Virus record (IMG/VR): IMGVR_UViG_3300008110_000034 | Span: 1-64,000 of that record | Length of the DNA stretch: 64,000 bases | Strand: one strand, 5' to 3' | Origin: a virus | Shown here: positions 17,133 to 34,779 of the stretch, piece by piece | Numbering within the stretch: position 1 is the first letter of the stretch | Layout of the letters: every line of letters begins with the position of its first letter | The notes under the pieces: generated by a model | The model's database searches: none | What the model was told of the DNA's origin: nothing | The model's input: the letters and a program-made list of their open reading frames with translations, nothing else | Position numbers and translations under genes: made by a program

Positions 17133-17616
17133 TTTTTTAAAAGAAGTCTTACCAGACTTTGACTTTGATAATCCCGTTATTAATCCTCTAACACTAGAAG
17201 AGGAAATGGTCAAGTTAATGGCAGAAGAAAACGGTATTGGTCTTGCTGCAAGTCAAGTAGGAGTCAATGCCAGGGTATTCGTTATGCATCTTAAAAATAT
17301 GCCTGAAGTGTATACACCATTTGCTCTATTCAATCCTGTAATAATCAGTGCAAGTTCAGAACAAGTTGAAGATGAAGAAGGATGTTTAAGCTTTCCAGGA
17401 TTATTTTTTAAAGTTAAAAGACCTAAAACTATAGTAGTCGAGTTTCTTGACAGAAATAAAAAATCTTATATACTAACACTAGAAGGAATCGATGCTAGAT
17501 GTTTTTTACACGAGTTGGATCATTTAAATGGTGTCTGTTTTACAGACCGAATAAGTAAATTAAAACTAGATTTAGCAATTAAAAAACAAAGGAAAAGATA
17601 TGGTAGAACCAAGTGA
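17104..17616 (+). CDS. def: Peptide deformylase
   Basis: GIGLAASQVG, EGCLS, HELDHLNG motifs. Confidence 0.93.
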   Translation: MLKLLKSTDNFLKEVLPDFDFDNPVINPLTLEEEMVKLMAEENGIGLAASQVGVNARVFVMHLKNMPEVYTPFALFNPVIISASSEQVEDEEGCLSFPGLFFKVKRPKTIVVEFLDRNKKSYILTLEGIDARCFLHELDHLNGVCFTDRISKLKLDLAIKKQRKRYGRTK

Positions 17617-19846
17617 CAATTTGCAGTTGGTATTTGAAGCAGCAATCGATGTAGCTAAAAAACTCAATCATGAATATCTTACAATCGAACATTTGCTGTA
17701 TGCTATGTTATGCGATGAAAGTTTTACTAATTGCATTAGCGGATATGGTTCAGATCCAGAAAGCTTAAAAAAGGATGTCGAACTCTATATCAAAAATAAA
17801 TTAAATGATATAGTAATCAGCGATAATACTAAGCCAAAAAAAACTCAAGCAGTTGAGCGAGTGTTAAACAGAGCATTTACTCAAGTGCTGTTTCATGGAA
17901 GACAAAAAATTGAGTCTACAGATGTTTTTGTCTCGATTATGAGCGAAAAAAAATCTTGGGCACATTTTTATATTCAACAAGCAGACATTGATAAAGATAA
18001 ATTCCTCGATTATATTAATAATGCAGCAGAAGAGGAAGAGATTGAATCACATGACACACAGAGCGATCGTGCTCTAAAAGCTTTTACTACAAATCTAAAT
18101 GAAGCTGTTAAGAAGAATAAAGTTGATCCTGTTATTGGACGCATTGACGAGTTAGAAAATATCTCTCTAGCACTTGGACGTAGATCAAAGAGTAATGTAA
18201 TTCTTGTAGGCGATCCAGGTGTAGGTAAAACTGCAATAGCTGAAGGACTTGCATATAATATTGTTAAAGGTGCAGTTCCAGATTTCCTTAAAGAATATAC
18301 AGTTTATAATTTAGATATTAGTGCTATGTTAGCAGGTAGCAAGTATCGTGGAGACTTTGAAGAACGCTTTAAAGCAGTATTAAAAGGCCTAAGCAAAAAA
18401 GGAAAAACTGTCCTGTTCATCGATGAAGCACATATGATCAGCGGAGCAGGAAGTGCAAATAATAGTGCAAATGATCTCAGTAATATGATGAAACCTGCAC
18501 TGAGCAAAGGTAATATTAAAGTTGTTGCTAGTACTACTTGGGAAGAATATCGTAAGTACTTTGAAAAGGATCGCGCACTAATGCGTCGATTCCAACGAAT
18601 TACAGTAGAAGAACCTACTGCAGAAATGACTATACAAATCCTTAAAGGAATTAAAAAATACTACGAAACTTTTCATAAAGTTAAAATTAAAGATGATGCA
18701 ATTCATTCTGCCGTAAAACTTAGCATTAAGTATCAAGCAGATAAGAAATTACCAGATAAGGCAATTGATTTAATTGACTGTGCTGCAAGTAGATTTAATC
18801 TTAAATTAGCTGATGAAAGAATAATCACTACTAATGAAATTGAATACGAAATTAGTAAAATGGTTAATATTCCTGCAGAGACAATTGCAGAACAAGAATC
18901 TTCAAATCTAGCTAATTTAGAATCTCAAATTAAAGAAGACGTCTATGGACAAGATTTTGCAATTACCGAAGTTGTAGATAAGATTCTTGTAAGCAGAGCA
19001 GGGTTAAAATCTGAAAATAAACCAGTTGGTAGTTTTGTGTTCATGGGACCAACGGGTTGCGGTAAAACTGAGACTGCTAAAGCACTGTCCAAGCACCTCG
19101 GAGTCAAGCTAATTAGATTTGATATGAGTGAATATCAAGAAAAACATTCAGTATCTAAACTAATTGGCAGTCCGCCTGGGTATGTAGGTTTCGAAGAAAA
19201 TGCCGGATTATTAATTACACAGATCCAAGAATCCCCGAACTGTATACTACTGCTAGACGAGATTGAAAAAGCTCATCCGGATGTGGCAACTATTTTGTTG
19301 CAAATTATGGACAACGGATTTGTTACAGGCAGTAATGGTAAAAAGGCAGATTGTAGAAATATTATTCTAATCTTAACTACTAATGCAGGTGCAGCAGAGT
19401 CTGAAAAGAATGTTATTGGGTTTGGTGATCAAGAAAAAGTCTACGAAGATAAAGAACTTAAGAAATTCTTTGCTCCAGAATTTAGAAATCGTCTTGATGG
19501 CATTGTTACATTCAACAAGCTTGGAAAAGAAACAATGATCAAGATTGTTGGAAAATTCATGTCAGAAGTGCGTGATCAAATTAGAGAAAAAGGCGTTAAA
19601 CTAAAAATCAATAACGACGCAATTGACTGGTTAGTAGAAAAAGGGTTTGATAAGAAAATGGGTGCTCGTCCTTTACAGCGTGTAATTGATAAAGAAATTA
19701 AACGTCCGTTAGCTAAGATGATACTATTTGGTGATCTTAAGAAGGGCGGAATATTGAATATTTCTATAGAAGATGATAAAATAGCACTACGACCAAAAGT
19801 TAGTAAGTCTAAAATTGTAACAAATGAAATTCCTGAAATCTCATAA
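17600..19846 (+). CDS. clpA: ClpA-type AAA+ unfoldase
   Basis: Clp N-domain, two Walker A motifs (GDPGVGKT, GPTGCGKT), IGF ClpP-docking loop, no ClpB middle domain. Confidence 0.92.
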   Translation: MVEPSDNLQLVFEAAIDVAKKLNHEYLTIEHLLYAMLCDESFTNCISGYGSDPESLKKDVELYIKNKLNDIVISDNTKPKKTQAVERVLNRAFTQVLFHGRQKIESTDVFVSIMSEKKSWAHFYIQQADIDKDKFLDYINNAAEEEEIESHDTQSDRALKAFTTNLNEAVKKNKVDPVIGRIDELENISLALGRRSKSNVILVGDPGVGKTAIAEGLAYNIVKGAVPDFLKEYTVYNLDISAMLAGSKYRGDFEERFKAVLKGLSKKGKTVLFIDEAHMISGAGSANNSANDLSNMMKPALSKGNIKVVASTTWEEYRKYFEKDRALMRRFQRITVEEPTAEMTIQILKGIKKYYETFHKVKIKDDAIHSAVKLSIKYQADKKLPDKAIDLIDCAASRFNLKLADERIITTNEIEYEISKMVNIPAETIAEQESSNLANLESQIKEDVYGQDFAITEVVDKILVSRAGLKSENKPVGSFVFMGPTGCGKTETAKALSKHLGVKLIRFDMSEYQEKHSVSKLIGSPPGYVGFEENAGLLITQIQESPNCILLLDEIEKAHPDVATILLQIMDNGFVTGSNGKKADCRNIILILTTNAGAAESEKNVIGFGDQEKVYEDKELKKFFAPEFRNRLDGIVTFNKLGKETMIKIVGKFMSEVRDQIREKGVKLKINNDAIDWLVEKGFDKKMGARPLQRVIDKEIKRPLAKMILFGDLKKGGILNISIEDDKIALRPKVSKSKIVTNEIPEIS

Positions 19847-22190: not shown

Positions 22191-22532
22191 ATGGATAAAA
22201 TGAACCCTTTAGATATTACAAGAAAAAAAGATAAAGATACATTAGATTTTGATCTAATTGAAGATGTTATCTATTTTATGAACAATGATCCAGAATTTTA
22301 TAGGAAAACCTATTTTCCATTTATTCATAAATTTAAAAGTTATATAGATGCAGGTCGCAGATTAAAACCTGTAGTGTTTGCACCTATGTGTAAAAAGGCT
22401 TTTGATTTATATCAAAATAAATTTCCTCAAGAAAGTATGCATTTAGAATTATCTAAATCAGATTATAAAGACATGTGCGGTAAATTACACGAAAAAGAAA
22501 TGACCAATATTAAAGAGGGTCATTATGATTAA
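22191..22532 (+). CDS. Hypothetical protein
   Basis: ATG just after the previous stop; start uncertain (22191 or 22200). Confidence 0.55.
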   Translation: MDKMNPLDITRKKDKDTLDFDLIEDVIYFMNNDPEFYRKTYFPFIHKFKSYIDAGRRLKPVVFAPMCKKAFDLYQNKFPQESMHLELSKSDYKDMCGKLHEKEMTNIKEGHYD

Positions 22533-23268
22533 TGTAAATGAAGGTGGAAACGTAATTCCAGGTGCTAAAGAAATTAATAAGAGAAATTTCCAAAGTGCAA
22601 TGCAAAATCTTCAACAGGTATTACCAGATGGCATCAATGTCTATCCTATTGGCAGTGCAGGTAAGAAAGAAATCAGTAGTGATATTGATGCACTGATTGA
22701 CGCAAAAGAATTAATGTCAGTTTTTCCTGCAAAAGAATTAAAATTAAGTCGTAAGGCTCTAGAGGACTATTTTAAAGAAAACGGATACTTTGCCGCAAGA
22801 ACAGGTGTTAGTATTCACGTAGGCATTCCTACTGGCGAAGGCGAGGAAATTGTACAAGTTGATCTTATGGCTGTAGAAAATGCTGCTGAAGTCCAACCTT
22901 TACACACTCATGACTACGACGAACCTACAATGAAGGGCGGAACCTTACACGCTATATGGGCAGATTTAGCTAATATGAGTCAACTTCCTGGTCATGAAAG
23001 TCTAATGATGAGTCCTTATAAAGGATTGGTTGATAGAAATACTAAAGAATTAATAACCAGCGATAAAGACAAAATCGCAAAAGTAATTATTGGATCAACG
23101 GCAAGTGCAGATGACATGGGATCACCTAAAAAAATGCTAAAGGCTCTAGAACCATATACTGAAAAGTATCAAGCAATTAAAACAAAATATTTTCCACAAA
23201 CAGAAAGTTATGTTCCTGGAACAACTACTTGGTTTAGGCAAATGATTAATATAGCGAGTGTCCGATGA
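22525..23268 (+). CDS. Pol-beta superfamily nucleotidyltransferase
   Basis: IGSAGKKEISSDIDALID (GS...DxD) plus a downstream VQVDLM third Asp. Confidence 0.7.
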   Translation: MINVNEGGNVIPGAKEINKRNFQSAMQNLQQVLPDGINVYPIGSAGKKEISSDIDALIDAKELMSVFPAKELKLSRKALEDYFKENGYFAARTGVSIHVGIPTGEGEEIVQVDLMAVENAAEVQPLHTHDYDEPTMKGGTLHAIWADLANMSQLPGHESLMMSPYKGLVDRNTKELITSDKDKIAKVIIGSTASADDMGSPKKMLKALEPYTEKYQAIKTKYFPQTESYVPGTTTWFRQMINIASVR

Positions 23269-24419
23269 AATTAAGAGAATTGTTTGAAGCTGCTGCTCCT
23301 AAAGTTGGTAGAAAATATCAACACGTAGAAGACCTTGTAATTACTAATGGAGTACAGGGCGGGCTTCACGCAGTCGAAAGACTTAGAGATATGGTAGATG
23401 ATCCTAAGACTATTGAATTAAAGTGGGACGGAAATCCAGTAGTCTATTGGGGCAGAGATGCTGAAGGACGGTTTAGTCTTATACCTAAAAATGCTTGGGA
23501 ATACTTAAAAAGAGGCAAGCAGGAATTAGAAAACGGTATTAAAACTGTGATGTACGATCCCGAAGATATAAAAGATTTTATATTAGGCACAGGAAAACTA
23601 GATCCAGCAAAACAAAAAGAAAGAGAAAAGTTTGCTCAAGAAATTTCTGGATTATGGAATTATTTTGAAAAAGCCAGTCCACAAAAGGGATATGTTGAAG
23701 GCGGAATACTTTTTAGACCTGGACAGCCTGGCTGGTCCGGAGATCCTAATCCTTCAACGGGTGAATTTGATTTTACTCCAAATATAACTTCGTTTCATAT
23801 AGGACCAGAATCACAACTATATGAAAAAATTAAAAGAGCTAAAATAATGGTAGCAGTGACCGGCTATTACGAAGAACTTGGTAGCAGTGACGAGTTAAGA
23901 TATCCAGATGCAGAAGCACTCAGCACAGAAGATGTTATAGTTCAAGGTACTACTTACATTGAAAAACTAGAAGGATTAGAAGTTCCAGAATTAGATCAAA
24001 TAGAAGAATACTTAAATAATCCAAAAGTTTCTAGTGCTATTTCAAGGTACTTGTCTCCAAAGCCTGGACTGAGTAATCCGGGAAGTGTTTTATATACGTT
24101 TTTAAATGCTAATCTTAGAAAAAATAATCTTACTCAAGCATTTCAAAGTTGGTCGCCAACAAAATTAAGTGCTGGACAAAATCAAAAAATGTTGTCAGAC
24201 ATGGAAGGATTAGATTCTACTCTAAAAGCTGTAGAGATGCTTACAAATGCTAAAATGAAAGTGATTGCTGCTGCTAGTTTAGGAACACACGGCGGTATAA
24301 GACAAACTAAACCAGAAGGATATGCACAAGCACATCCAGGTAAAAAATTTAAATATGACATTCCTGGTCAATTTATAAAAGCGATTGATCAAGATACTTG
24401 GTCTCCAAAAAAGGATTGA
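23265..24419 (+). CDS. Ligase-like covalent nucleotidyltransferase
   Basis: ELKWDG (KxDG motif I); late KPEGY; leader MKLRELFE. Confidence 0.55.
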   Translation: MKLRELFEAAAPKVGRKYQHVEDLVITNGVQGGLHAVERLRDMVDDPKTIELKWDGNPVVYWGRDAEGRFSLIPKNAWEYLKRGKQELENGIKTVMYDPEDIKDFILGTGKLDPAKQKEREKFAQEISGLWNYFEKASPQKGYVEGGILFRPGQPGWSGDPNPSTGEFDFTPNITSFHIGPESQLYEKIKRAKIMVAVTGYYEELGSSDELRYPDAEALSTEDVIVQGTTYIEKLEGLEVPELDQIEEYLNNPKVSSAISRYLSPKPGLSNPGSVLYTFLNANLRKNNLTQAFQSWSPTKLSAGQNQKMLSDMEGLDSTLKAVEMLTNAKMKVIAAASLGTHGGIRQTKPEGYAQAHPGKKFKYDIPGQFIKAIDQDTWSPKKD

Positions 24420-24420
24420 A

Positions 24421-26094
24421 ATGAAAATTAATAATTTATTTGAAGATTTAACAAGAACAGGCGAGAGTAAAAGTGCAGTAGTAGGCTGGGGACGTGGTAT
24501 GGGACATAAAGGCCACATGTTCTTAGCCAGTAGCGTAGTAACTCATGCAGATGAACTTTCAGCAGATCCGTATTTTGTAGTTAGCAAAACAGTGGGCAAG
24601 GATGATCCAATAACCCCAGAAGAAAAATTAGAAATTTATAAAAAAGTTTTCCCAGAAAAAGGACATATTTTTCAAACTGCTAGCGACGAGATGCCAGACC
24701 TTACGAGAGTGTTATCAAAATTAAATAGTTTAGGCTATGATAATGTTACTGTAGTTGTAGGCGCAGATCAAAAAAAAGCACTGAGCTATGTTCAAAATTA
24801 TAATGGAACTCCTGATAAAAAAGGAAATATTCCATATAGTTTTAAAGAATTGAATGTAATTAGTAGACAAGAAACTAATGATCCTAATGCAGGAGAGGAA
24901 GGACCAAGGGCCACACCAATGAGAGATATATTAAAAAATCCAAATGCAAGCGAAGAAGAAAAATTTAAATTATGGCGATCATCAATGAGCCCCGAATTAA
25001 GCGACCAAGAAGTAAAAGACTTAATGAGTAAGGCTTCGGATCGCATGGGGGAATTCACTGGGAAAAAAGATAAGGTTGCAGAATCAGTAACTCCTGATCA
25101 ATTTAAAAAAACTATGCTTTCTGAAGTAAAAAGACTTGTAGAAGAAATAAAGAAAGACCCTTATATCTCTAAAATGTTAAAAGAAGATAATCAGGATGAA
25201 GACTACTATTATGTAGTTCGTCGTCAGACTGAACAAGACATTGAATTAGAAATGCCTTCAAAGATGTGGACCGGTCTTAAACCTAAACATGCCACATACG
25301 AAGAAGCCAAAGCAGCATACGAAGAACTAAAGAACAAGCATCCTAGAGAAAAGTTCACAGTTACAAGACATCCTAGGACATCTCACATAGGTGGCAAACC
25401 TAATCGAGAGTTTCCAGAAGGTGTGGCGGAAGGCTCTGACAATATTGAACAAATCAAAGCCAAAATTCGAGAGTTAGAAGCAGAACAGGAAGAAAACAAA
25501 TATGGTTCTTTTGCCTATGACAGTGTAGACGCTGAACTGCAATTTTTATACGGAAAGTTAGATAAAATTAAAAAGCAAGGTGTGGCGGAAGGCTCAGATG
25601 ATATTGAGGATACACGACAATGGAGAGATGCTATTGCTTTAGCCAAATCACAAAAGGCGATCCGTCAGGCTCGATATGGCAAAGACCAAAAGTTTTATGC
25701 CGACGGCACACCAGTAACTCCTGAGGAAGTTGCTCGCAGAGCCGCAGAAAGAAAAGCCAAAAAGAAAGGTGTGGCGGAAGGCTCTGGCGGTGCCAGATAT
25801 AAAATAAAAAGCATTGGTAAAGACAAGAACGGTGATTATTACATCAGCCCTAACACAGGCAAAAAAGTTTACAAGAATGCTAAAGTGGGTGATCACGAAA
25901 CTCCACGCGGGGAAGTAAAACCTAATGTGGCGGAAGGTAAAATTAAAATAAAAATTAAACATCCGCCAGAAACTGCTCAAGAAAAGTTATATAAGAAGCA
26001 TCAAGAATTAAGAAAGAAAAGTGGCTTACCTGATCCAGAAGAATATAAAAAGAAAGCAGCCGAGCTGAGCCACCTAAACCAAGAAACTTTGTAG
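24421..26094 (+). CDS. HxGH nucleotidyltransferase fused to a GVAEG-delimited module array
   Basis: Leader MKINNLFE; GRGMGHKGH, VVVGADQ, RATPMR; C-terminal modules separated by GVAEG. Confidence 0.7.
   Translation: MKINNLFEDLTRTGESKSAVVGWGRGMGHKGHMFLASSVVTHADELSADPYFVVSKTVGKDDPITPEEKLEIYKKVFPEKGHIFQTASDEMPDLTRVLSKLNSLGYDNVTVVVGADQKKALSYVQNYNGTPDKKGNIPYSFKELNVISRQETNDPNAGEEGPRATPMRDILKNPNASEEEKFKLWRSSMSPELSDQEVKDLMSKASDRMGEFTGKKDKVAESVTPDQFKKTMLSEVKRLVEEIKKDPYISKMLKEDNQDEDYYYVVRRQTEQDIELEMPSKMWTGLKPKHATYEEAKAAYEELKNKHPREKFTVTRHPRTSHIGGKPNREFPEGVAEGSDNIEQIKAKIRELEAEQEENKYGSFAYDSVDAELQFLYGKLDKIKKQGVAEGSDDIEDTRQWRDAIALAKSQKAIRQARYGKDQKFYADGTPVTPEEVARRAAERKAKKKGVAEGSGGARYKIKSIGKDKNGDYYISPNTGKKVYKNAKVGDHETPRGEVKPNVAEGKIKIKIKHPPETAQEKLYKKHQELRKKSGLPDPEEYKKKAAELSHLNQETL
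25418..25937 (+). repeat. In-frame dispersed direct-repeat array (AAGGTGTGGCGGAAGGCTC)
   Basis: Identical 19-mers at 25418-25436, 25577-25595 and 25766-25784; 12-nt core TGTGGCGGAAGG at 25926-25937. Periods 159, 189 and 156 nt. Confidence 0.95.
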
Positions 26095-26249
26095 CTAAAA
26101 ACGCAAAAACAGCAGGTGCAGGCAAGCATAAAGATGCTAAGAAAGCAGAAAAGCAAGGAAAAGTTAAGCACAAAGCACAGAGCATACCATTAGATGAATC
26201 TAAATGGGGGCCTGCTATGAAAGCATATGCTAAAAGAAACATACCCTAG
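26049..26249 (+). other. -1 frame continuation of the 24421 gene (basic KPRNFVAKNAK module, no start codon of its own)
   Basis: Open frame EPPKPRNFVAKNAKTAGAGKHKDAKKAEKQGKVKHK...NIP* overlaps the end of the upstream ORF. Confidence 0.55.
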
Positions 26250-26335: not shown

Positions 26336-26770
26336 ATGGACAAATTAGAGAACGCACTTAAAATTGCCTTTGCAAGCGAATTTAGCTTTTATTTAAAAGC
26401 TCATAACTATCACTGGAATGTCACAGGACCTATGTTCCCACAACTTCACGACCTATTTGGAAAAATATATGAAGAAGTTTACGAAAGTATAGATCAGTTC
26501 GCTGAAGAAATTCGTGTTCTAGGCACATTTGTTCCAGCTAGTTATACTCGTTTTAGTATGTTAAGTCAAATTGAAGACGAGACTAGTATTCCAGAAGCTC
26601 AAGGTATGATTAAAGAATTGTTTGAAGATTCAGAGCGTATGATAAAAATCTTAAAATTATCCTTTGACCTAGCTAACTCCAGCGGAGAAGATGGTCTAGC
26701 TGATTTCTTGGCTGGTCGACTTGATGCTCATAAAAAGCATTCCTGGATGCTACGTTCAACTCTACAATGA
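26336..26770 (+). CDS. dps: Dps/ferritin-like DNA-protection protein
   Basis: FYLKAHNYHWNV, LHDLF, DQFAEEIR, HKKHSWML. Confidence 0.9.
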   Translation: MDKLENALKIAFASEFSFYLKAHNYHWNVTGPMFPQLHDLFGKIYEEVYESIDQFAEEIRVLGTFVPASYTRFSMLSQIEDETSIPEAQGMIKELFEDSERMIKILKLSFDLANSSGEDGLADFLAGRLDAHKKHSWMLRSTLQ

Positions 26771-27638: not shown

Positions 27639-28268
27639 ATGTTTGAATTTGATTTCACCCTAAATAAATTAAAAAAAGTAGTACACAAAAACAAAGAGTT
27701 GGATATTTGGTATAATGCATTTAATACCTATCTTCCGCAATTTTACATCACAACTCCTGCTCGAGTAGCAGGATTCATTGCACAATGCCAGCACGAAAGT
27801 GCCGATTTTACTGCTCTGCAAGAGAATCTAAACTACGGTGCTAAAGGCCTAAGAGGATTATTTGGTAAGTACTTCCCAGATGACGCATCAGCAAAGGCAT
27901 ACGAACGTAAGCCTGAAAAAATTGCTAACAAAATATATGGCGGACGAATGGGGAACGGTCCAGAATCAAGTGGTGATGGATGGAAATATCGTGGACGTGG
28001 TATTCTACAAATAACAGGTAAAGACAATTACACAAAATGTAGTCGTGATCTGTTTAAAGATGATACCTTAATAGAAAATCCAGATTATGTAAGATATCCA
28101 GAATATGCGGTTTTAACAGCCTGTTGGTTCTGGTATAAAAATCAACTCAATGCAATTTGCGACAAAGGTGATATTGTACTACTAAGTAAAAGAATTAACG
28201 GTGGTACTATTGGTATGGAAGATCGTATCAAGCACTGGAACGATGCATTGGATGCATTTGAAGGATAA
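27639..28268 (+). CDS. Glycoside hydrolase family 19 endolysin
   Basis: FIAQCQHES, ENLNY, YRGRGILQITG, RINGG; TAAATA at 27615 and AAGGAG SD. Confidence 0.88.
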   Translation: MFEFDFTLNKLKKVVHKNKELDIWYNAFNTYLPQFYITTPARVAGFIAQCQHESADFTALQENLNYGAKGLRGLFGKYFPDDASAKAYERKPEKIANKIYGGRMGNGPESSGDGWKYRGRGILQITGKDNYTKCSRDLFKDDTLIENPDYVRYPEYAVLTACWFWYKNQLNAICDKGDIVLLSKRINGGTIGMEDRIKHWNDALDAFEG

Positions 28269-28270
28269 TT

Positions 28271-28528
28271 ATGAGGTTAAGGGAGCTTCTTGGCGAAACT
28301 GCAACTGCTGGAGCCACTACCGCTGCTAATGTAGGCACGGTAGTTAGTCCTCATATTGCCATAGGTAAAGATCGAGGAAAGAAAAGTTATACAGGTAGTC
28401 CAGGCAAATCAGGTACAAAAGCACCAAGTGTACCAAAAGCAGTTCAAGCTAAAAACTCTGACGGCACTGCTAAAAATGCTCTTGATATGAAGGGCAACAT
28501 TTTTGGCGGCGGCGCTGTCAAACGATAA
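28271..28528 (+). CDS. Small probable internal head protein
   Basis: Leader MRLRELLGE. Confidence 0.5.
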   Translation: MRLRELLGETATAGATTAANVGTVVSPHIAIGKDRGKKSYTGSPGKSGTKAPSVPKAVQAKNSDGTAKNALDMKGNIFGGGAVKR

Positions 28529-28553
28529 ATATAGAATAAATTTGGAGAAACTC

Positions 28554-29612
28554 ATGCATCACGATTTAATTCCGTCTGAAAGAGATCACGAAGGTAAAAT
28601 GGCCCGTGCTGACCTTTTTAAACTAGCACAATATAGTTTTAAGTTATTTAAAATGCTCGATGACAATCAGCAGTTAGATGGCTGGGTACAAGCTAAGATT
28701 ACCAAAGCTGCAGACTATATTGCTAGTGTATATCACTATTTAGAGTACGAAATGAAATTTAGTGATTACGGACAAAAGCTTGAAAATAGCGATCTTTATG
28801 TTGAGTCAATTCGCAATGTCTATACACAAAAACTCACAGAAGCCAAAAAGAAAATGGATAAGCTTAAAGCCTCTTTAGATAAAAAAGAAAAAGAGATGCA
28901 AGAAGGCTTTGACGAAATGGAAAAGTATCTAAAAGATAAAAAAGGTCCTCAGCCAAGTGGCAGTGCTGGTAAGAAGCAAGGATCCAGATACGGCGGCAGC
29001 AAGCAAAAAGACGATGAAGATAAAGAGAAAGACGTTAAAGAAGGTTTTCCAACTGTAGCAGATGCTAAAGCACGCCACGAAAAAGAAAAAGGCACCGGCA
29101 AGTTTGATAAAAAGAAAATTAGTACTGGCACAGTTTACACTCGTAAAGCTGATAAAGATGTTGACGATGAAGAAGATACTCCGAAGAAAAACAAAAAAGT
29201 TAAAGAAGGTGCTAAGCCAGATTTCTTAGACATGGACAAAGATGGCAACAAAAAAGAGCCTATGAAAAAGGCAGTTGCTGATAAGAAGAAAAATCCGTTT
29301 GCTAAAAAAGTCAAAGAAGACACTCGTCTTGCAATGAGCCCTGCTCCTGCTCAGAAAAAATCTGGGATACCAAGTACAGCAACAACTACAGTACCAGGTA
29401 TGAGAGCCACACCTGCTGATTTAAAGAAAGCAAATTCTAGTGCTGCGCTAGGCGAAGGAAAATGCAATCATAGTGCCAAAGGTAAAAAGTGTCCAGTACA
29501 TGGCCTAAAAGAATGTGGTAGTATGTATGAAAGTAAAAAAGTAGTACCTGTAATACAAGAAAGTGCTGAAGTTGCAAGACTTAAAGACTTAACTAAAAAG
29601 CTGTTAGGATAA
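28554..29612 (+). CDS. Charged modular probable head/scaffold-associated protein
   Basis: TAAATA at 28526, GGAG SD; recurring VKEG/VKED junctions; C-terminal ESAEVARLKDLTKKLLG. Confidence 0.55.
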   Translation: MHHDLIPSERDHEGKMARADLFKLAQYSFKLFKMLDDNQQLDGWVQAKITKAADYIASVYHYLEYEMKFSDYGQKLENSDLYVESIRNVYTQKLTEAKKKMDKLKASLDKKEKEMQEGFDEMEKYLKDKKGPQPSGSAGKKQGSRYGGSKQKDDEDKEKDVKEGFPTVADAKARHEKEKGTGKFDKKKISTGTVYTRKADKDVDDEEDTPKKNKKVKEGAKPDFLDMDKDGNKKEPMKKAVADKKKNPFAKKVKEDTRLAMSPAPAQKKSGIPSTATTTVPGMRATPADLKKANSSAALGEGKCNHSAKGKKCPVHGLKECGSMYESKKVVPVIQESAEVARLKDLTKKLLG

Positions 29613-32109: not shown

Positions 32110-34779
32110 TTGTACGTAGACGCTTATTTTGATAGAGATTCTGATGTCATCAAAATAGTAGAAAGAAACAACAAGGGAAAAAGAGAATTTAAAGATTTTC
32201 CAGTTCGTTATACTTTTTACTATCCCGATCCTCGTGGTAAATTTACAAGCATTTACGGAGACCCGCTGTCTCGCGTAGTTTGTAGAAATTCAAAAGATTT
32301 CCGTAAGGAAATGGCTATCCACAGTAATAAAAAACTTTATGAAGCAGACATCAATCCAGTATTTGTATGTCTTAGTGAGAACTACCTTAATCAAGATGCA
32401 CCAAAACTAAACATTGCATTCTTTGACATCGAGGTAGACTTCGACCCTGAAAGAGGATACAGTACTCCGGAAGATGCTTTTATGCCTATTACGGCAATCA
32501 CTGTATACTTAAAATGGCTTAATCAATTAATCACTTTAGCTATTCCACCTAAAACTTTAAAAATAGATCAAGCTAGAGATCTTATTAAAGACGTACCTGA
32601 TACACATCTTTTTGAAAACGAAGGAGATATGTTAGAAACATTTCTTGATCTTATCGAAGATGCAGACATTTTAAGTGGATGGAACAGTGAAGGATATGAT
32701 ATTCCTTATACTGTTAATCGTGTTACTCGTGTACTAAGTAAGGAAGATACTAAAAGATTCTGTCTGTTCGGACAGTATCCTAAAAAACGAGAATACGAAA
32801 AATACGGTAAATCTGCCGTGACCTATGATCTGATAGGGAGAGTTCATTTAGACAGTCTTGAACTTTATAGAAAATACACCTATGAAGAAAGGCATTCTTA
32901 TAGACTTGATGCTATTGGAGAAATGGAAGTCGGTGAAACCAAGACTGTTTATGAAGGTACCTTAGATCAATTATACAACAATGACTTTCATAAATTTATT
33001 GTCTATAACAGACAAGACGTAGCACTACTGAATAAACTAGACAATAAACTAAAATTTATAGATCTAGCCAACACACTTGCACATGAATGTACTGTGTTAC
33101 TGCAGACTACTATGGGTGCAGTAGCAGTTACAGAGCAGGCTATCATTAATGAAGCACATCAACGTGGCTTTCAGGTGCCTAATAGACCAAGGCGTGATGA
33201 AGATGAAGATACACAAGCAGCAGGTGCTTATGTTGCATATCCTAAAGAAGGCTTGCAAGACTGGGTTGGTTCATTAGATATTAACAGTCTTTATCCTAGT
33301 GCTATTAGAGCATTAAACATGGGTCCGGAAACTATTGTTGGACAACTAAGGCCTGTATATACAGAAACATACGTCCATGAACAAATGACTCTTAAAAAGA
33401 AATCATTTGCAGCAGCATGGGAAGGCATGTTTGGTAGTTTAGAATTTGAATCTGTAATTAAAAAAGACAAAGCGACGGCTATCACTATTGACTTTGAAAA
33501 CGGTGAAGAAGTTGTCATGAGTGGTGCAGAAATTTATAAATTAATCTACGACAGTAATCAACCGTGGATGATGTCTGCAAATGGAACTATTTTTACCTAT
33601 GAAAAAGAAGGTATTATTCCAGGTTTGTTAAAGCGTTGGTATGCAGAACGTAAAGAAATGCAGGCTAAACTTAAAGAGTGTATAAATGCTAGTAACAAAA
33701 TTGAAGAGGAATATTGGGATAAGCGACAGTTGGTTAAGAAGATTAATCTTAATAGTTTGTATGGTGCTATTCTTAATCCTGGCTGTAGGTTTTTCGATAA
33801 AAGAATCGGTCAATCAACGACGCTTACCGGACGGCAAATTGCCAAACACATGGCAAGTAAAGTCAACGAAATAATTACTGGAGAATACGATCATGTTGGA
33901 AAAGCTATTATCTACGGCGATACTGATAGCTGTTATTTTTCTGCTTATCGGTCGCTTAAAAAAGATATCGACTCGGGCGCGATCCCGTGGACCAAAGAAA
34001 CAGTAGTACAGCTTTACGATCAGATTGGCCAAGAGGTAAACAATACATTTGCCGGATTTATGGAAAATACATTTCATTGTCCTAAATCCAGAGGCGAAGT
34101 AATTAAAGCTGGTCGAGAAATTGTTGGTTCAAAAGCATTGTTCATTACTAAGAAACGTTATGCAGTATTGTATTACGATAAAGAAGGCAAGCGCACAGAC
34201 ACAGATGGAAAGCCTGGTAAGATTAAGGCCATGGGTCTGGATCTTAAACGTAGCGATACGCCAGAATTTATTCAGAACTTTCTGAGCGATGTACTTGAAA
34301 AAGTATTAACAGGTGCCAATGAAGAACAAGTGCTAGAGCATATTTCTAAATTTAGGACTGAATTTAAATCTCGTCCTGGTTGGGAAAAAGGTAGTCCAAA
34401 ACGTGCTAACAATATTACTGACTATGAAGCTAAAGAAAAGCGGCAGGGTAAAGCTAATATGCCTGGACATGTTCGTGCAAGCATAAATTGGAATACGCTA
34501 AAGCGTATGTACGATGACAAATATTCTATGCAGATTGTCGACGGAATGAAAGTCATTGTATGCAAATTAAAAGAAAATCCATTAGGGTTTACATCAGTAG
34601 CTTATCCTACAGATGAACTACGATTGCCTAAGTGGTTCCAGGAGCTGCCATTTGATCATTTAGAAATGGAAGCAACTATTATAGATAACAAGCTAGAAAA
34701 CTTAATCGGGGTCCTAAATTGGGATGTTCGATCAACTGAACAAAATAATACGTTTAACAATTTATTTGATTTTAGTTGA
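32110..34779 (+). CDS. Family B DNA polymerase (T4 gp43-like)
   Basis: Exonuclease FFDIEV and YNRQD; polymerase LDINSLYPS, KINLNSLYG, YGDTDS; TTG start with AGGAG SD. Confidence 0.96.
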   Translation: MYVDAYFDRDSDVIKIVERNNKGKREFKDFPVRYTFYYPDPRGKFTSIYGDPLSRVVCRNSKDFRKEMAIHSNKKLYEADINPVFVCLSENYLNQDAPKLNIAFFDIEVDFDPERGYSTPEDAFMPITAITVYLKWLNQLITLAIPPKTLKIDQARDLIKDVPDTHLFENEGDMLETFLDLIEDADILSGWNSEGYDIPYTVNRVTRVLSKEDTKRFCLFGQYPKKREYEKYGKSAVTYDLIGRVHLDSLELYRKYTYEERHSYRLDAIGEMEVGETKTVYEGTLDQLYNNDFHKFIVYNRQDVALLNKLDNKLKFIDLANTLAHECTVLLQTTMGAVAVTEQAIINEAHQRGFQVPNRPRRDEDEDTQAAGAYVAYPKEGLQDWVGSLDINSLYPSAIRALNMGPETIVGQLRPVYTETYVHEQMTLKKKSFAAAWEGMFGSLEFESVIKKDKATAITIDFENGEEVVMSGAEIYKLIYDSNQPWMMSANGTIFTYEKEGIIPGLLKRWYAERKEMQAKLKECINASNKIEEEYWDKRQLVKKINLNSLYGAILNPGCRFFDKRIGQSTTLTGRQIAKHMASKVNEIITGEYDHVGKAIIYGDTDSCYFSAYRSLKKDIDSGAIPWTKETVVQLYDQIGQEVNNTFAGFMENTFHCPKSRGEVIKAGREIVGSKALFITKKRYAVLYYDKEGKRTDTDGKPGKIKAMGLDLKRSDTPEFIQNFLSDVLEKVLTGANEEQVLEHISKFRTEFKSRPGWEKGSPKRANNITDYEAKEKRQGKANMPGHVRASINWNTLKRMYDDKYSMQIVDGMKVIVCKLKENPLGFTSVAYPTDELRLPKWFQELPFDHLEMEATIIDNKLENLIGVLNWDVRSTEQNNTFNNLFDFS

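Follow-up and report, generated by a model that had tools for sequence, protein, structure and literature searches.

The modular gene and its linkers

We analyzed a 64,000-nt stretch of viral DNA, positions 1 to 64,000 of IMG/VR record IMGVR_UViG_3300008110_000034 (here referred to as the window), concentrating on one gene whose C-terminal part is a series of small protein modules joined by a short linker of nearly constant DNA sequence. The record holds 180,861 bp, about half of the genome being missing from it, and its source is an uncultured freshwater T4-type giant (jumbo) phage. The region is AT rich, with a GC content of 36 to 37%. The features of the gene are listed in Table 1 together with some of its neighbors. 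The true start is most likely the ATG given there, which opens the sequence MKINNLFEDL... and matches the calls in public collections. Intact forms of the gene on other contigs encode 622 or 691 amino acids (aa).

Table 1. Coordinates of the modular gene, its parts, and neighboring genes in the window
Feature	Position	Strand	Remarks
Modular gene, window form	24421-26094	+	557 aa from ATG 24421
N-terminal leader MKINNLFE	24421-24444	+	8 aa, ends L-F-E; resembles the T4 capsid-targeting sequence
HxGH nucleotidyltransferase-like (cytidylyltransferase-like) domain	24445-25083	+	~210 aa; ends K-V-A-E
Module Ma (SVTPDQF...TRHPRTSHIGGKPNREFPE)	25084-25417	+	Stands behind a different N terminus in other phages
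Linker 1, canonical 19-nt joint	25418-25436	+	E-G-V-A-E-G-S
Module M1	25437-25576	+	Acidic; predicted helical hairpin
Linker 2, canonical 19-nt joint	25577-25595	+	Q-G-V-A-E-G-S
Module M2 (SDDIEDTRQW...)	25596-25765	+	11 IMG/VR loci, 53-100% aa identity
Linker 3, canonical 19-nt joint	25766-25784	+	K-G-V-A-E-G-S
Module M3 (SGGARYKIKSIGKDKNGDYY...)	25785-25925	+	Basic; predicted beta hairpin
Linker 4, partly decayed	25926-25941	+	N-V-A-E-G-K; contains the 9-nt repeat GAAGGTAAA at 25933-25941
Module M4 (KIKIKIKHPPETAQEKLYKKH...)	25942-26063	+	Shortened in the window copy
40-nt gap	26063/26064	+	Frameshift leading to premature stop at 26092-26094
Last module, M5 (PKPRNFVAKNAKTAGAGKHKD...)	26064-26249	+	-1 frame in this copy; read in frame in the intact 622-aa product
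ClpB-like AAA+ protein (phrog_4871)	17600-19846
Ferritin/Dps-like protein	26336-26770
GH19-like lysozyme	27639-28268
Family-B DNA polymerase	32110-34779

The HxGH domain gave distant tblastn matches to cyanophage genes annotated as cytidyltransferase (E values down to 2e-10) and had no significant match in Pfam, NCBIfam, or PDB; the nucleotidyltransferase label, which draws on those matches and on the HxGH motif, denotes distant similarity. The V-A-E that closes this domain (at 25075) is spelled in ordinary codons, GTT GCA GAA. The modules behind it are ~50 to 70 aa each and mostly basic (pI 9.6 to 10.3). A single-sequence AlphaFold model of the protein (mean predicted local distance difference test [pLDDT] score of 65) consists of helical hairpins and small beta units, with pLDDT values below 50 at linkers 1 to 3, which lie between helical or beta modules. 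No Pfam family was found in the window protein and no PHROG family in protein P0243, and relatives show only domains of unknown function (DUFs).

The window carries a shortened copy of the gene. The 40 nt missing between positions 26063 and 26064 are present in six other contigs and in two Logan assemblies, and their loss shifts the reading frame, so that the window open reading frame (ORF) ends early and the last module is left in the -1 frame, where it reads PKPRNFVAKNAK.... Over the gene, the six contigs are otherwise 100% identical to the window, apart from one 207-nt module in the contig L016 (see below). The gap may be a rare variant; otherwise it is an assembly error of this single contig. 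The intact 622-aa product is recorded in 55 blocks of the collection, and the intact gene is identical in at least 23 contigs across JGI, ENA, NCBI, and Logan assemblies.

An earlier description of this DNA, made from the letters alone (here called the sequence-only reading), had reported three identical in-frame 19-nt repeats and a 12-nt core delimiting unrelated spacers. A mismatch scan confirmed the repeats: AAGGTGTGGCGGAAGGCTC occurs at 25418, 25577, and 25766 with no mismatches, and the 12-nt core TGTGGCGGAAGG occurs again at 25926, giving spacings of 159, 189, and 156 nt. All four copies lie in one reading frame of a single ORF, encoding (E/Q/K)GVAEGS three times and NVAEGK once. In shuffled sequence, 0.02 matches were expected at up to three mismatches, and three copies were reached in none of 100 shuffles. 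The genome-wide search that the sequence-only reading had proposed for the 14-nt core of the repeat found no further copy on either strand of the 180,861-bp record, and the 15-mer likewise had none at three mismatches; the window gene holds the only copies in the record. The spacers also proved unrelated. When the modules were compared with each other by BLASTP in a six-sequence database, the linker was the only similarity detected, with the remaining matches at E values of 0.01 or higher. The units between the repeats are therefore not paralogous by pairwise comparison, as they would be after simple tandem duplication.

The spelling of the linker is unusual for this genome. GTG makes up 9.8% of valine codons and GCG 5.8% of alanine codons, and because both are rare, the probability that a GVAEG peptide is spelled GGTGTGGCGGAAGGC is 3.4e-4 per site under the codon usage of the genome. 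Linkers 1 to 3 contain no hairpin or inverted repeat. An imperfect inverted repeat at 25928 to 25968 (TGGCGGA ... TCCGCCA, 17-nt arms, 76% complementary) begins within linker 4.

Linker DNA and module boundaries in other phages

To find the linker in other viruses without favoring any synonymous spelling, we scanned IMG/VR with a fully degenerate codon pattern for Q-G-V-A-E-G-S. Among the ~125 matches listed, 88 were exact copies of GGTGTGGCGGAAGGC, and most of the others differed by one base. The canonical GGTGTGGCGGAAGGC occupied 137 of 192 distinct GVAEG sites (in 130 ORFs on IMG/VR contigs). At the 192 sites, the five codons were GGT in 94%, GTG in 91%, GCG in 90%, GAA in 96%, and GGC in 83%, compared to 43, 22, 10, 78, and 32%, respectively, in the rest of these ORFs. 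The fixation extends into the preceding codon, which ends in AA at 95 to 96% of the sites, whichever of Q, E, or K it encodes. The number of silent mismatches per site was bimodal, with 0 or 1 in 181 sites and 3 or 4 in 14 sites; the latter come from GC-richer loci and are taken to be unrelated. The resulting consensus is (C/G/A)AA GGT GTG GCG GAA GGC, encoding (Q/E/K)GVAEG.

The linker DNA is kept letter for letter in more than 100 phage contigs. The linker-bearing contigs have GC contents of 35 to 47% and reach 364 kb, and complete genomes of 320 to 364 kb carry 0 to 4 canonical copies each. These data indicate that the silent sites are constrained at the level of the DNA (or RNA) itself and not by the peptide alone; the sequence-only reading had argued as much from the copies in the window, and the 83 to 96% fixation across 192 sites bears it out. 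The canonical junction recurs widely in uncultured freshwater T4-type jumbo phages. We found no relevant description of the GVAEG motif in a literature search, and when the module-rich relative P0016 was compared by tblastn with 50,697 records of cultured phages, nothing matched. A scan of 185,579 prokaryote genomes with the 17-mer returned at least 120 single matches, chiefly to unrelated proteins and to GC-rich bacteria; for 596 Gb such a number is near the chance level and thus offers no clue to the host.

We compared the modules across metagenome proteins and loci. The C-terminal modules each match many metagenome proteins independently, at identities of up to 80 to 97%, and the other parts of these proteins differ, with sigma-70, GH19 plus LysM, DUF6321, GP88, or CTP-transferase domains. 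In the metagenome proteins that were read, modules are bounded by (Q/K/E)GVAEG or by near variants such as VMAEG and GVAEV. Alignment of the M2 DNA with four other loci showed 78 to 91% nucleotide identity that starts and stops at the linkers, with unrelated flanks. The module itself had diverged at silent sites in these alignments, whereas most of the junctions had an identical linker and three had a linker with one or two altered letters. In pairs with a shared module on only one side, identical residues had codon identities of 0.75 to 1.0 in the linker versus ~0.55 to 0.6 in the module.

Two other forms of the gene differ from the window form by whole modules. Contig L016, from the population of this same phage, is base-for-base identical to the window over ~1.8 kb, apart from the 40-nt gap and one additional 207-nt module at exactly linker 4. 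This module is bounded by the 9-nt direct repeat GAAGGTAAA and recurs in many other phage proteins with varying upstream partners. In a related phage, a syntenic ortholog with 79% aa identity, which shares the neighboring ClpB-like ATPase, DUF6267, and ferritin genes, lacks M1, M2, and M3, which corresponds to exactly 25418 to 25937 in the window. The single junction of the ortholog is spelled GGT GTA GCA GAA AGC, in ordinary codons. Among close relatives, then, a short conserved sequence bounds insertions, deletions, and replacements.

These comparisons bear on the proposal, made in the sequence-only reading, of a repeat-mediated cassette system resembling CRISPR arrays or integrons. The ortholog, L016, and the modules shared with other genes support the part of that proposal in which modules are added, dropped, and shuffled at the repeat. 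The likeness to CRISPR or integron machinery did not hold up: no tyrosine recombinase was found in the record, linkers 1 to 3 have no hairpin, and the array is translated. A fixed order of modules with synonymously diverged repeats among relatives, which would have spoken against shuffling, was not what the comparison showed.

Assembly graphs gave a further view of the locus. At linkers 2 and 4 (window positions 25576 and 25925 to 25941), Logan unitigs of run X13 end or fork and have other sequences attached, so the joint acts as a branch point shared among phages or variants in one lake sample. In the Logan contigs, the 40-nt difference and graph breaks at linkers were the only differences seen. 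The raw-read run X21 contained no reads on the locus.

The head protease, short leaders, and neighboring genes

The peptide encoded by the linker contains V-A-E/G (with the slash marking the putative cut). An S77 (gp21-type) prohead protease is encoded at genome positions 114476 to 114916 (PF03420, E value of 2e-27, above the cutoff). It lies in a row with a gp22-like scaffold ORF, rich in hydrophobic-x-Glu motifs, and a gene for a gp23-like major capsid protein (PF07068 Gp23, E value of 2.7e-83) that has YLME/S in its N-terminal part. T4 gp21 and its giant-phage relatives cut after Glu behind a very short motif, and in T4, a 10-residue leader, MKTYQEFIAE, brings the internal proteins and Alt into the head and is removed by gp21 (PMC9026906, PMC5694885, PMC3012670, PMC8442874). 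As read from its residues, V-A-E/G fits the hydrophobic-x-Glu rule of the gp21/S77 protease.

Module-bearing proteins often begin with similar short leaders, among them MKAKEFIPAE, MKATEFIIE, MKIEQLLTE, and, in the window gene, MKINNLFE, which resembles the T4 leader in sequence. Such leaders lead straight into modules that elsewhere come after a GVAE/G joint. The pattern M..(hydrophobic)xE was present at the N terminus of 44% of module-bearing proteins, compared to 16% of the ORFs of the genome and 9.6% at internal methionines. The leader and the fit of V-A-E/G to the protease rule together suggest a head-packaged precursor that is cut into modules, and both packaging of the modular protein in the head and its cleavage at V-A-E/G are plausible on this basis.

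Three adjoining nucleotidyl-transfer-like genes of different types occupy 22525 to 25083: a Pol-beta-type gene with GS...DID (22525 to 23268), a KxDG ligase-like DUF6267 gene (23265 to 24419), and the HxGH domain of the modular gene. Their N termini, MINVNE, MKLRELFE, and MKINNLFE, are all leader-like. An 85-aa protein (28271 to 28528) starts with MRLRELLGE/TATAGATTAANVG, resembling the capsid protein (genome positions 116164 to 117330) after its putative cut, YLME/SPSAGATSAGNVATL; the unrelated modular protein P0016 ends in a similar tail. At 28503 to 29612 lies a 369-aa basic protein of modular appearance, with the M/V-x-E-G junctions MQEGF, VKEGF, and VKEGA around GAAGG, which are noncanonical, and with the motif PDFLDMDKDGNKKEPMKKA. 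Outside the window, at ~92.5 kb of the genome on the minus strand, there is a single open frame of ~4,600 aa.

A proposed dual-coded junction weighed against other explanations

We propose that the linker is a dual-coded junction, acting at the DNA level as a short homology for in-frame exchange and at the peptide level as a protease site, and we assign this explanation a probability of roughly 0.6. The junction element would link small peptide modules, each folding independently, into composite proteins while keeping them in frame. Its invariant 15 to 17 nt would probably serve as the short homology for deletion, duplication, insertion, and exchange of single modules or blocks of modules, both within one gene and between co-infecting phages. 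Because the junctions are all in phase 0 and the modules are all multiples of 3 nt, the frame would be kept at each exchange. Frequent exchange would homogenize the junction, and junctions that no longer exchange would drift to ordinary codons. In the peptide, V-A-E/G would be cut by the S77 protease, releasing the modules from a head-packaged precursor. The decayed junctions keep a hydrophobic-x-Glu followed by Gly or Ser and lose the spelling, which argues against an obligatory RNA or translation role at every boundary and favors homogenization through exchange.

A number of observations weigh against the dual-coded junction. With respect to exchange, 15 to 17 nt is short for efficient homologous recombination, and the sole fresh indel, that in L016, relied on a repeat of 9 nt, overlapping the linker by only half. 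Silent identity shows just a weak gradient with distance from the linker (36 and 22 nonindependent pairs), and conversion tracts are therefore not separable from selection on the site itself. We infer the recombination mechanism, along with protease cutting, packaging, and the functions of the modules, and no recombination event at the junction was directly observed; the modules, moreover, appear to lack a cultured relative. With respect to the head, the modular gene sits far from the head genes and among replication-type genes (the ClpB-like ATPase and the DNA polymerase). A single copy of the T4 late-promoter word TATAAATA is present in the window, against an expectation of 10, and the 181 kb contain four, none of them ahead of the head genes; given this depletion, the word is unusable for timing expression. 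When three near-complete jumbo genomes were checked for an S77 protease, two had a match, and the third, 99% complete and with four canonical linkers, had none.

The foremost alternative is a dedicated site-specific system, a sort of translated integron, in which a phage recombinase or homing-type nuclease recognizes the 17-nt joint and moves in-frame cassettes. The cassettes would circulate among the cargo genes of co-infecting jumbo phages, and the joint would also be where the head protease cuts to free each product, either in the capsid or in the next host. The conservation is indeed sharper than homology alone requires, with 15 to 17 near-invariant nucleotides and a steep drop on both sides, the module boundaries are exact, and the block with canonical linkers sits at what is a noncanonical V-A-E site in the ortholog. 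We nevertheless consider such a system unlikely, both as a mobile cassette mechanism and in its extension to circulating cargo. No match to the PF00589 tyrosine recombinase was found in the 181 kb of the record, with half of the genome missing, while all control genomes gave matches, and no structure of the inverted-repeat kind marks linkers 1 to 3. Even complete 320- to 364-kb genomes carry at most four canonical copies, the fresh 207-nt indel arose at a plain 9-nt direct repeat, and erosion, not persistence, would be the expected fate of a nuclease target.

We also considered a signal in RNA or translation, in which the rare GUG GCG, needed at every boundary between modules, would mark a pause, provide a site for hopping or landing, or bind a protein on the mRNA, with shuffling as a by-product. 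The rarity of both codons, the fixation of AA in the preceding codon regardless of the residue, and the presence of AGGTG, which is like a Shine-Dalgarno core, would all be accounted for in this way. Working genes nonetheless use junctions in ordinary codons, namely, GTA GCA in the ortholog, GTT GCA at 25075, and ATA ACA GAA GGT in L016, and other rare synonymous codons are unused, so that rarity alone is not what is selected. There was no Rfam match and no local structure, and a 200-nt metatranscriptome contig runs across linker 2 uninterrupted. A signal of this type, which would also leave unexplained why homology ends at the linkers, seems improbable to us.

Even less probable is a plain peptide linker, flexible or cleavable, whose copies are alike in DNA owing to recent duplication or shared ancestry, the DNA having no function of its own. 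Three copies do lie in one gene, and the first two have 31 nt in common at 90% identity, yet the modules between the copies are unrelated, the expected frequency of the spelling is only 3.4e-4, and the 15-mer is fixed at 137 of the 192 sites, on contigs of 35 to 47% GC, while adjoining homologous modules fall to 53 to 80% aa identity. Chimeric contigs joined by the assembler at a short shared repeat, a notion to which the X13 unitig breaks at linkers 2 and 4 lend some color, can be dismissed with near certainty, given that the identical intact gene appears in at least 23 contigs from four sources, that a repeat of 19 nt is much shorter than the final k used by the assemblers (several contigs are named k141), and that synteny around the gene is conserved.

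The dual-coded junction would combine two kinds of system that are already known. The closest known mechanism is the modular shuffling mediated by promoter-early stem-loop (PeSL) cassettes in T4-type phages (PMC2839356), which includes the formation of mini-circles (PMC2839356, PMC4122927). In both cases, a short conserved sequence flanks variable units in T4-type genomes, marks the limits of what is inserted, deleted, or replaced among close relatives, and is proposed to recombine between copies. PeSLs differ in that they are regulatory, consist of an intergenic sigma-70-like promoter and a terminator stem-loop, and shuffle whole genes, whereas the joint described here is 15 to 17 nt of coding sequence within an ORF, joins in-frame modules within genes, and has no inverted repeat at linkers 1 to 3.

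The second kind is the processed cargo of T4, that is, IPI, IPII, IPIII, and Alt. The phage studied here shares with T4 the S77 protease, the gp22-like scaffold, and the gp23-like capsid protein; its short leaders resemble MKTYQEFIAE in sequence and end in hydrophobic-x-Glu, and its modules, like the T4 internal proteins, are diverse, fast evolving, and mostly basic, with a V-A-E/G that fits cleavage after Glu. T4 cargo proteins, however, are single units with one leader each, whereas here one putatively packaged and cleaved polypeptide holds many modules separated by internal junctions, whose nucleotide sequence is fixed across phages.

Polyvalent proteins (Iyer et al. 2017, PMC5512222) likewise carry unrelated modules in one polypeptide and are presumed to enter together with the DNA and to be split into separate units. 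They are made of large, known enzymatic domains and usually bring their own peptidase, in contrast to the modules of 50 to 70 aa here, which have no Pfam or PHROG family. The paper on them describes no conserved nucleotide joint, and the terms "linker" and "shuffl" do not occur in it; conversely, none of the conflict domains of polyvalent proteins (MPTase, ArdC, DarA, and others) was found in the window protein, in P0243, or in their relatives.

Integron and CRISPR arrays resemble the locus in that identical short repeats alternate with unique units that differ among relatives. Here, in contrast, repeats and spacers form one continuous translated ORF, the spacers are conserved protein modules, and nothing points to RNA guides. 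Neither a PF00589 match in 181 kb (about half of the genome being missing) nor attC-type hairpins at linkers 1 to 3 were found.

In Borrelia vlsE, with its 17-bp direct repeats, and in the minicassettes of Neisseria pilE/pilS, short conserved in-frame sequences also bound exchangeable coding segments. There, silent copies in the same genome supply homologous variants of a single segment, unlike the unrelated modules that would be exchanged between different genes and phages here.

A fixed in-frame linker at which modules are gained, lost, and swapped seems to be undescribed. New from this locus are the within-population indel of a module in an otherwise identical gene, the ortholog that lacks exactly the 25418-to-25937 block and retains a decayed junction, and the bimodal distribution of silent mismatches together with the AA conserved in the preceding codon. 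The linker is also a rare instance of silent sites in a coding region that are fixed across many genomes and whose cause is directly testable. The 15- to 17-nt word can serve as a search key with which to catalogue, in freshwater viromes, hundreds of candidate effector modules that are so far unknown, and T4-type delivery vectors with modular cargo could follow the natural design rule that the arrangement suggests. If the dual-coded junction is correct, a single short sequence would specify a flexible, cleavable linker at the protein level and an in-frame site of exchange at the DNA level. It would give phages a route resembling exon shuffling by which to build and rebuild proteins, and it would explain the rapid diversification of small, probably injected, proteins in large uncultured phages.

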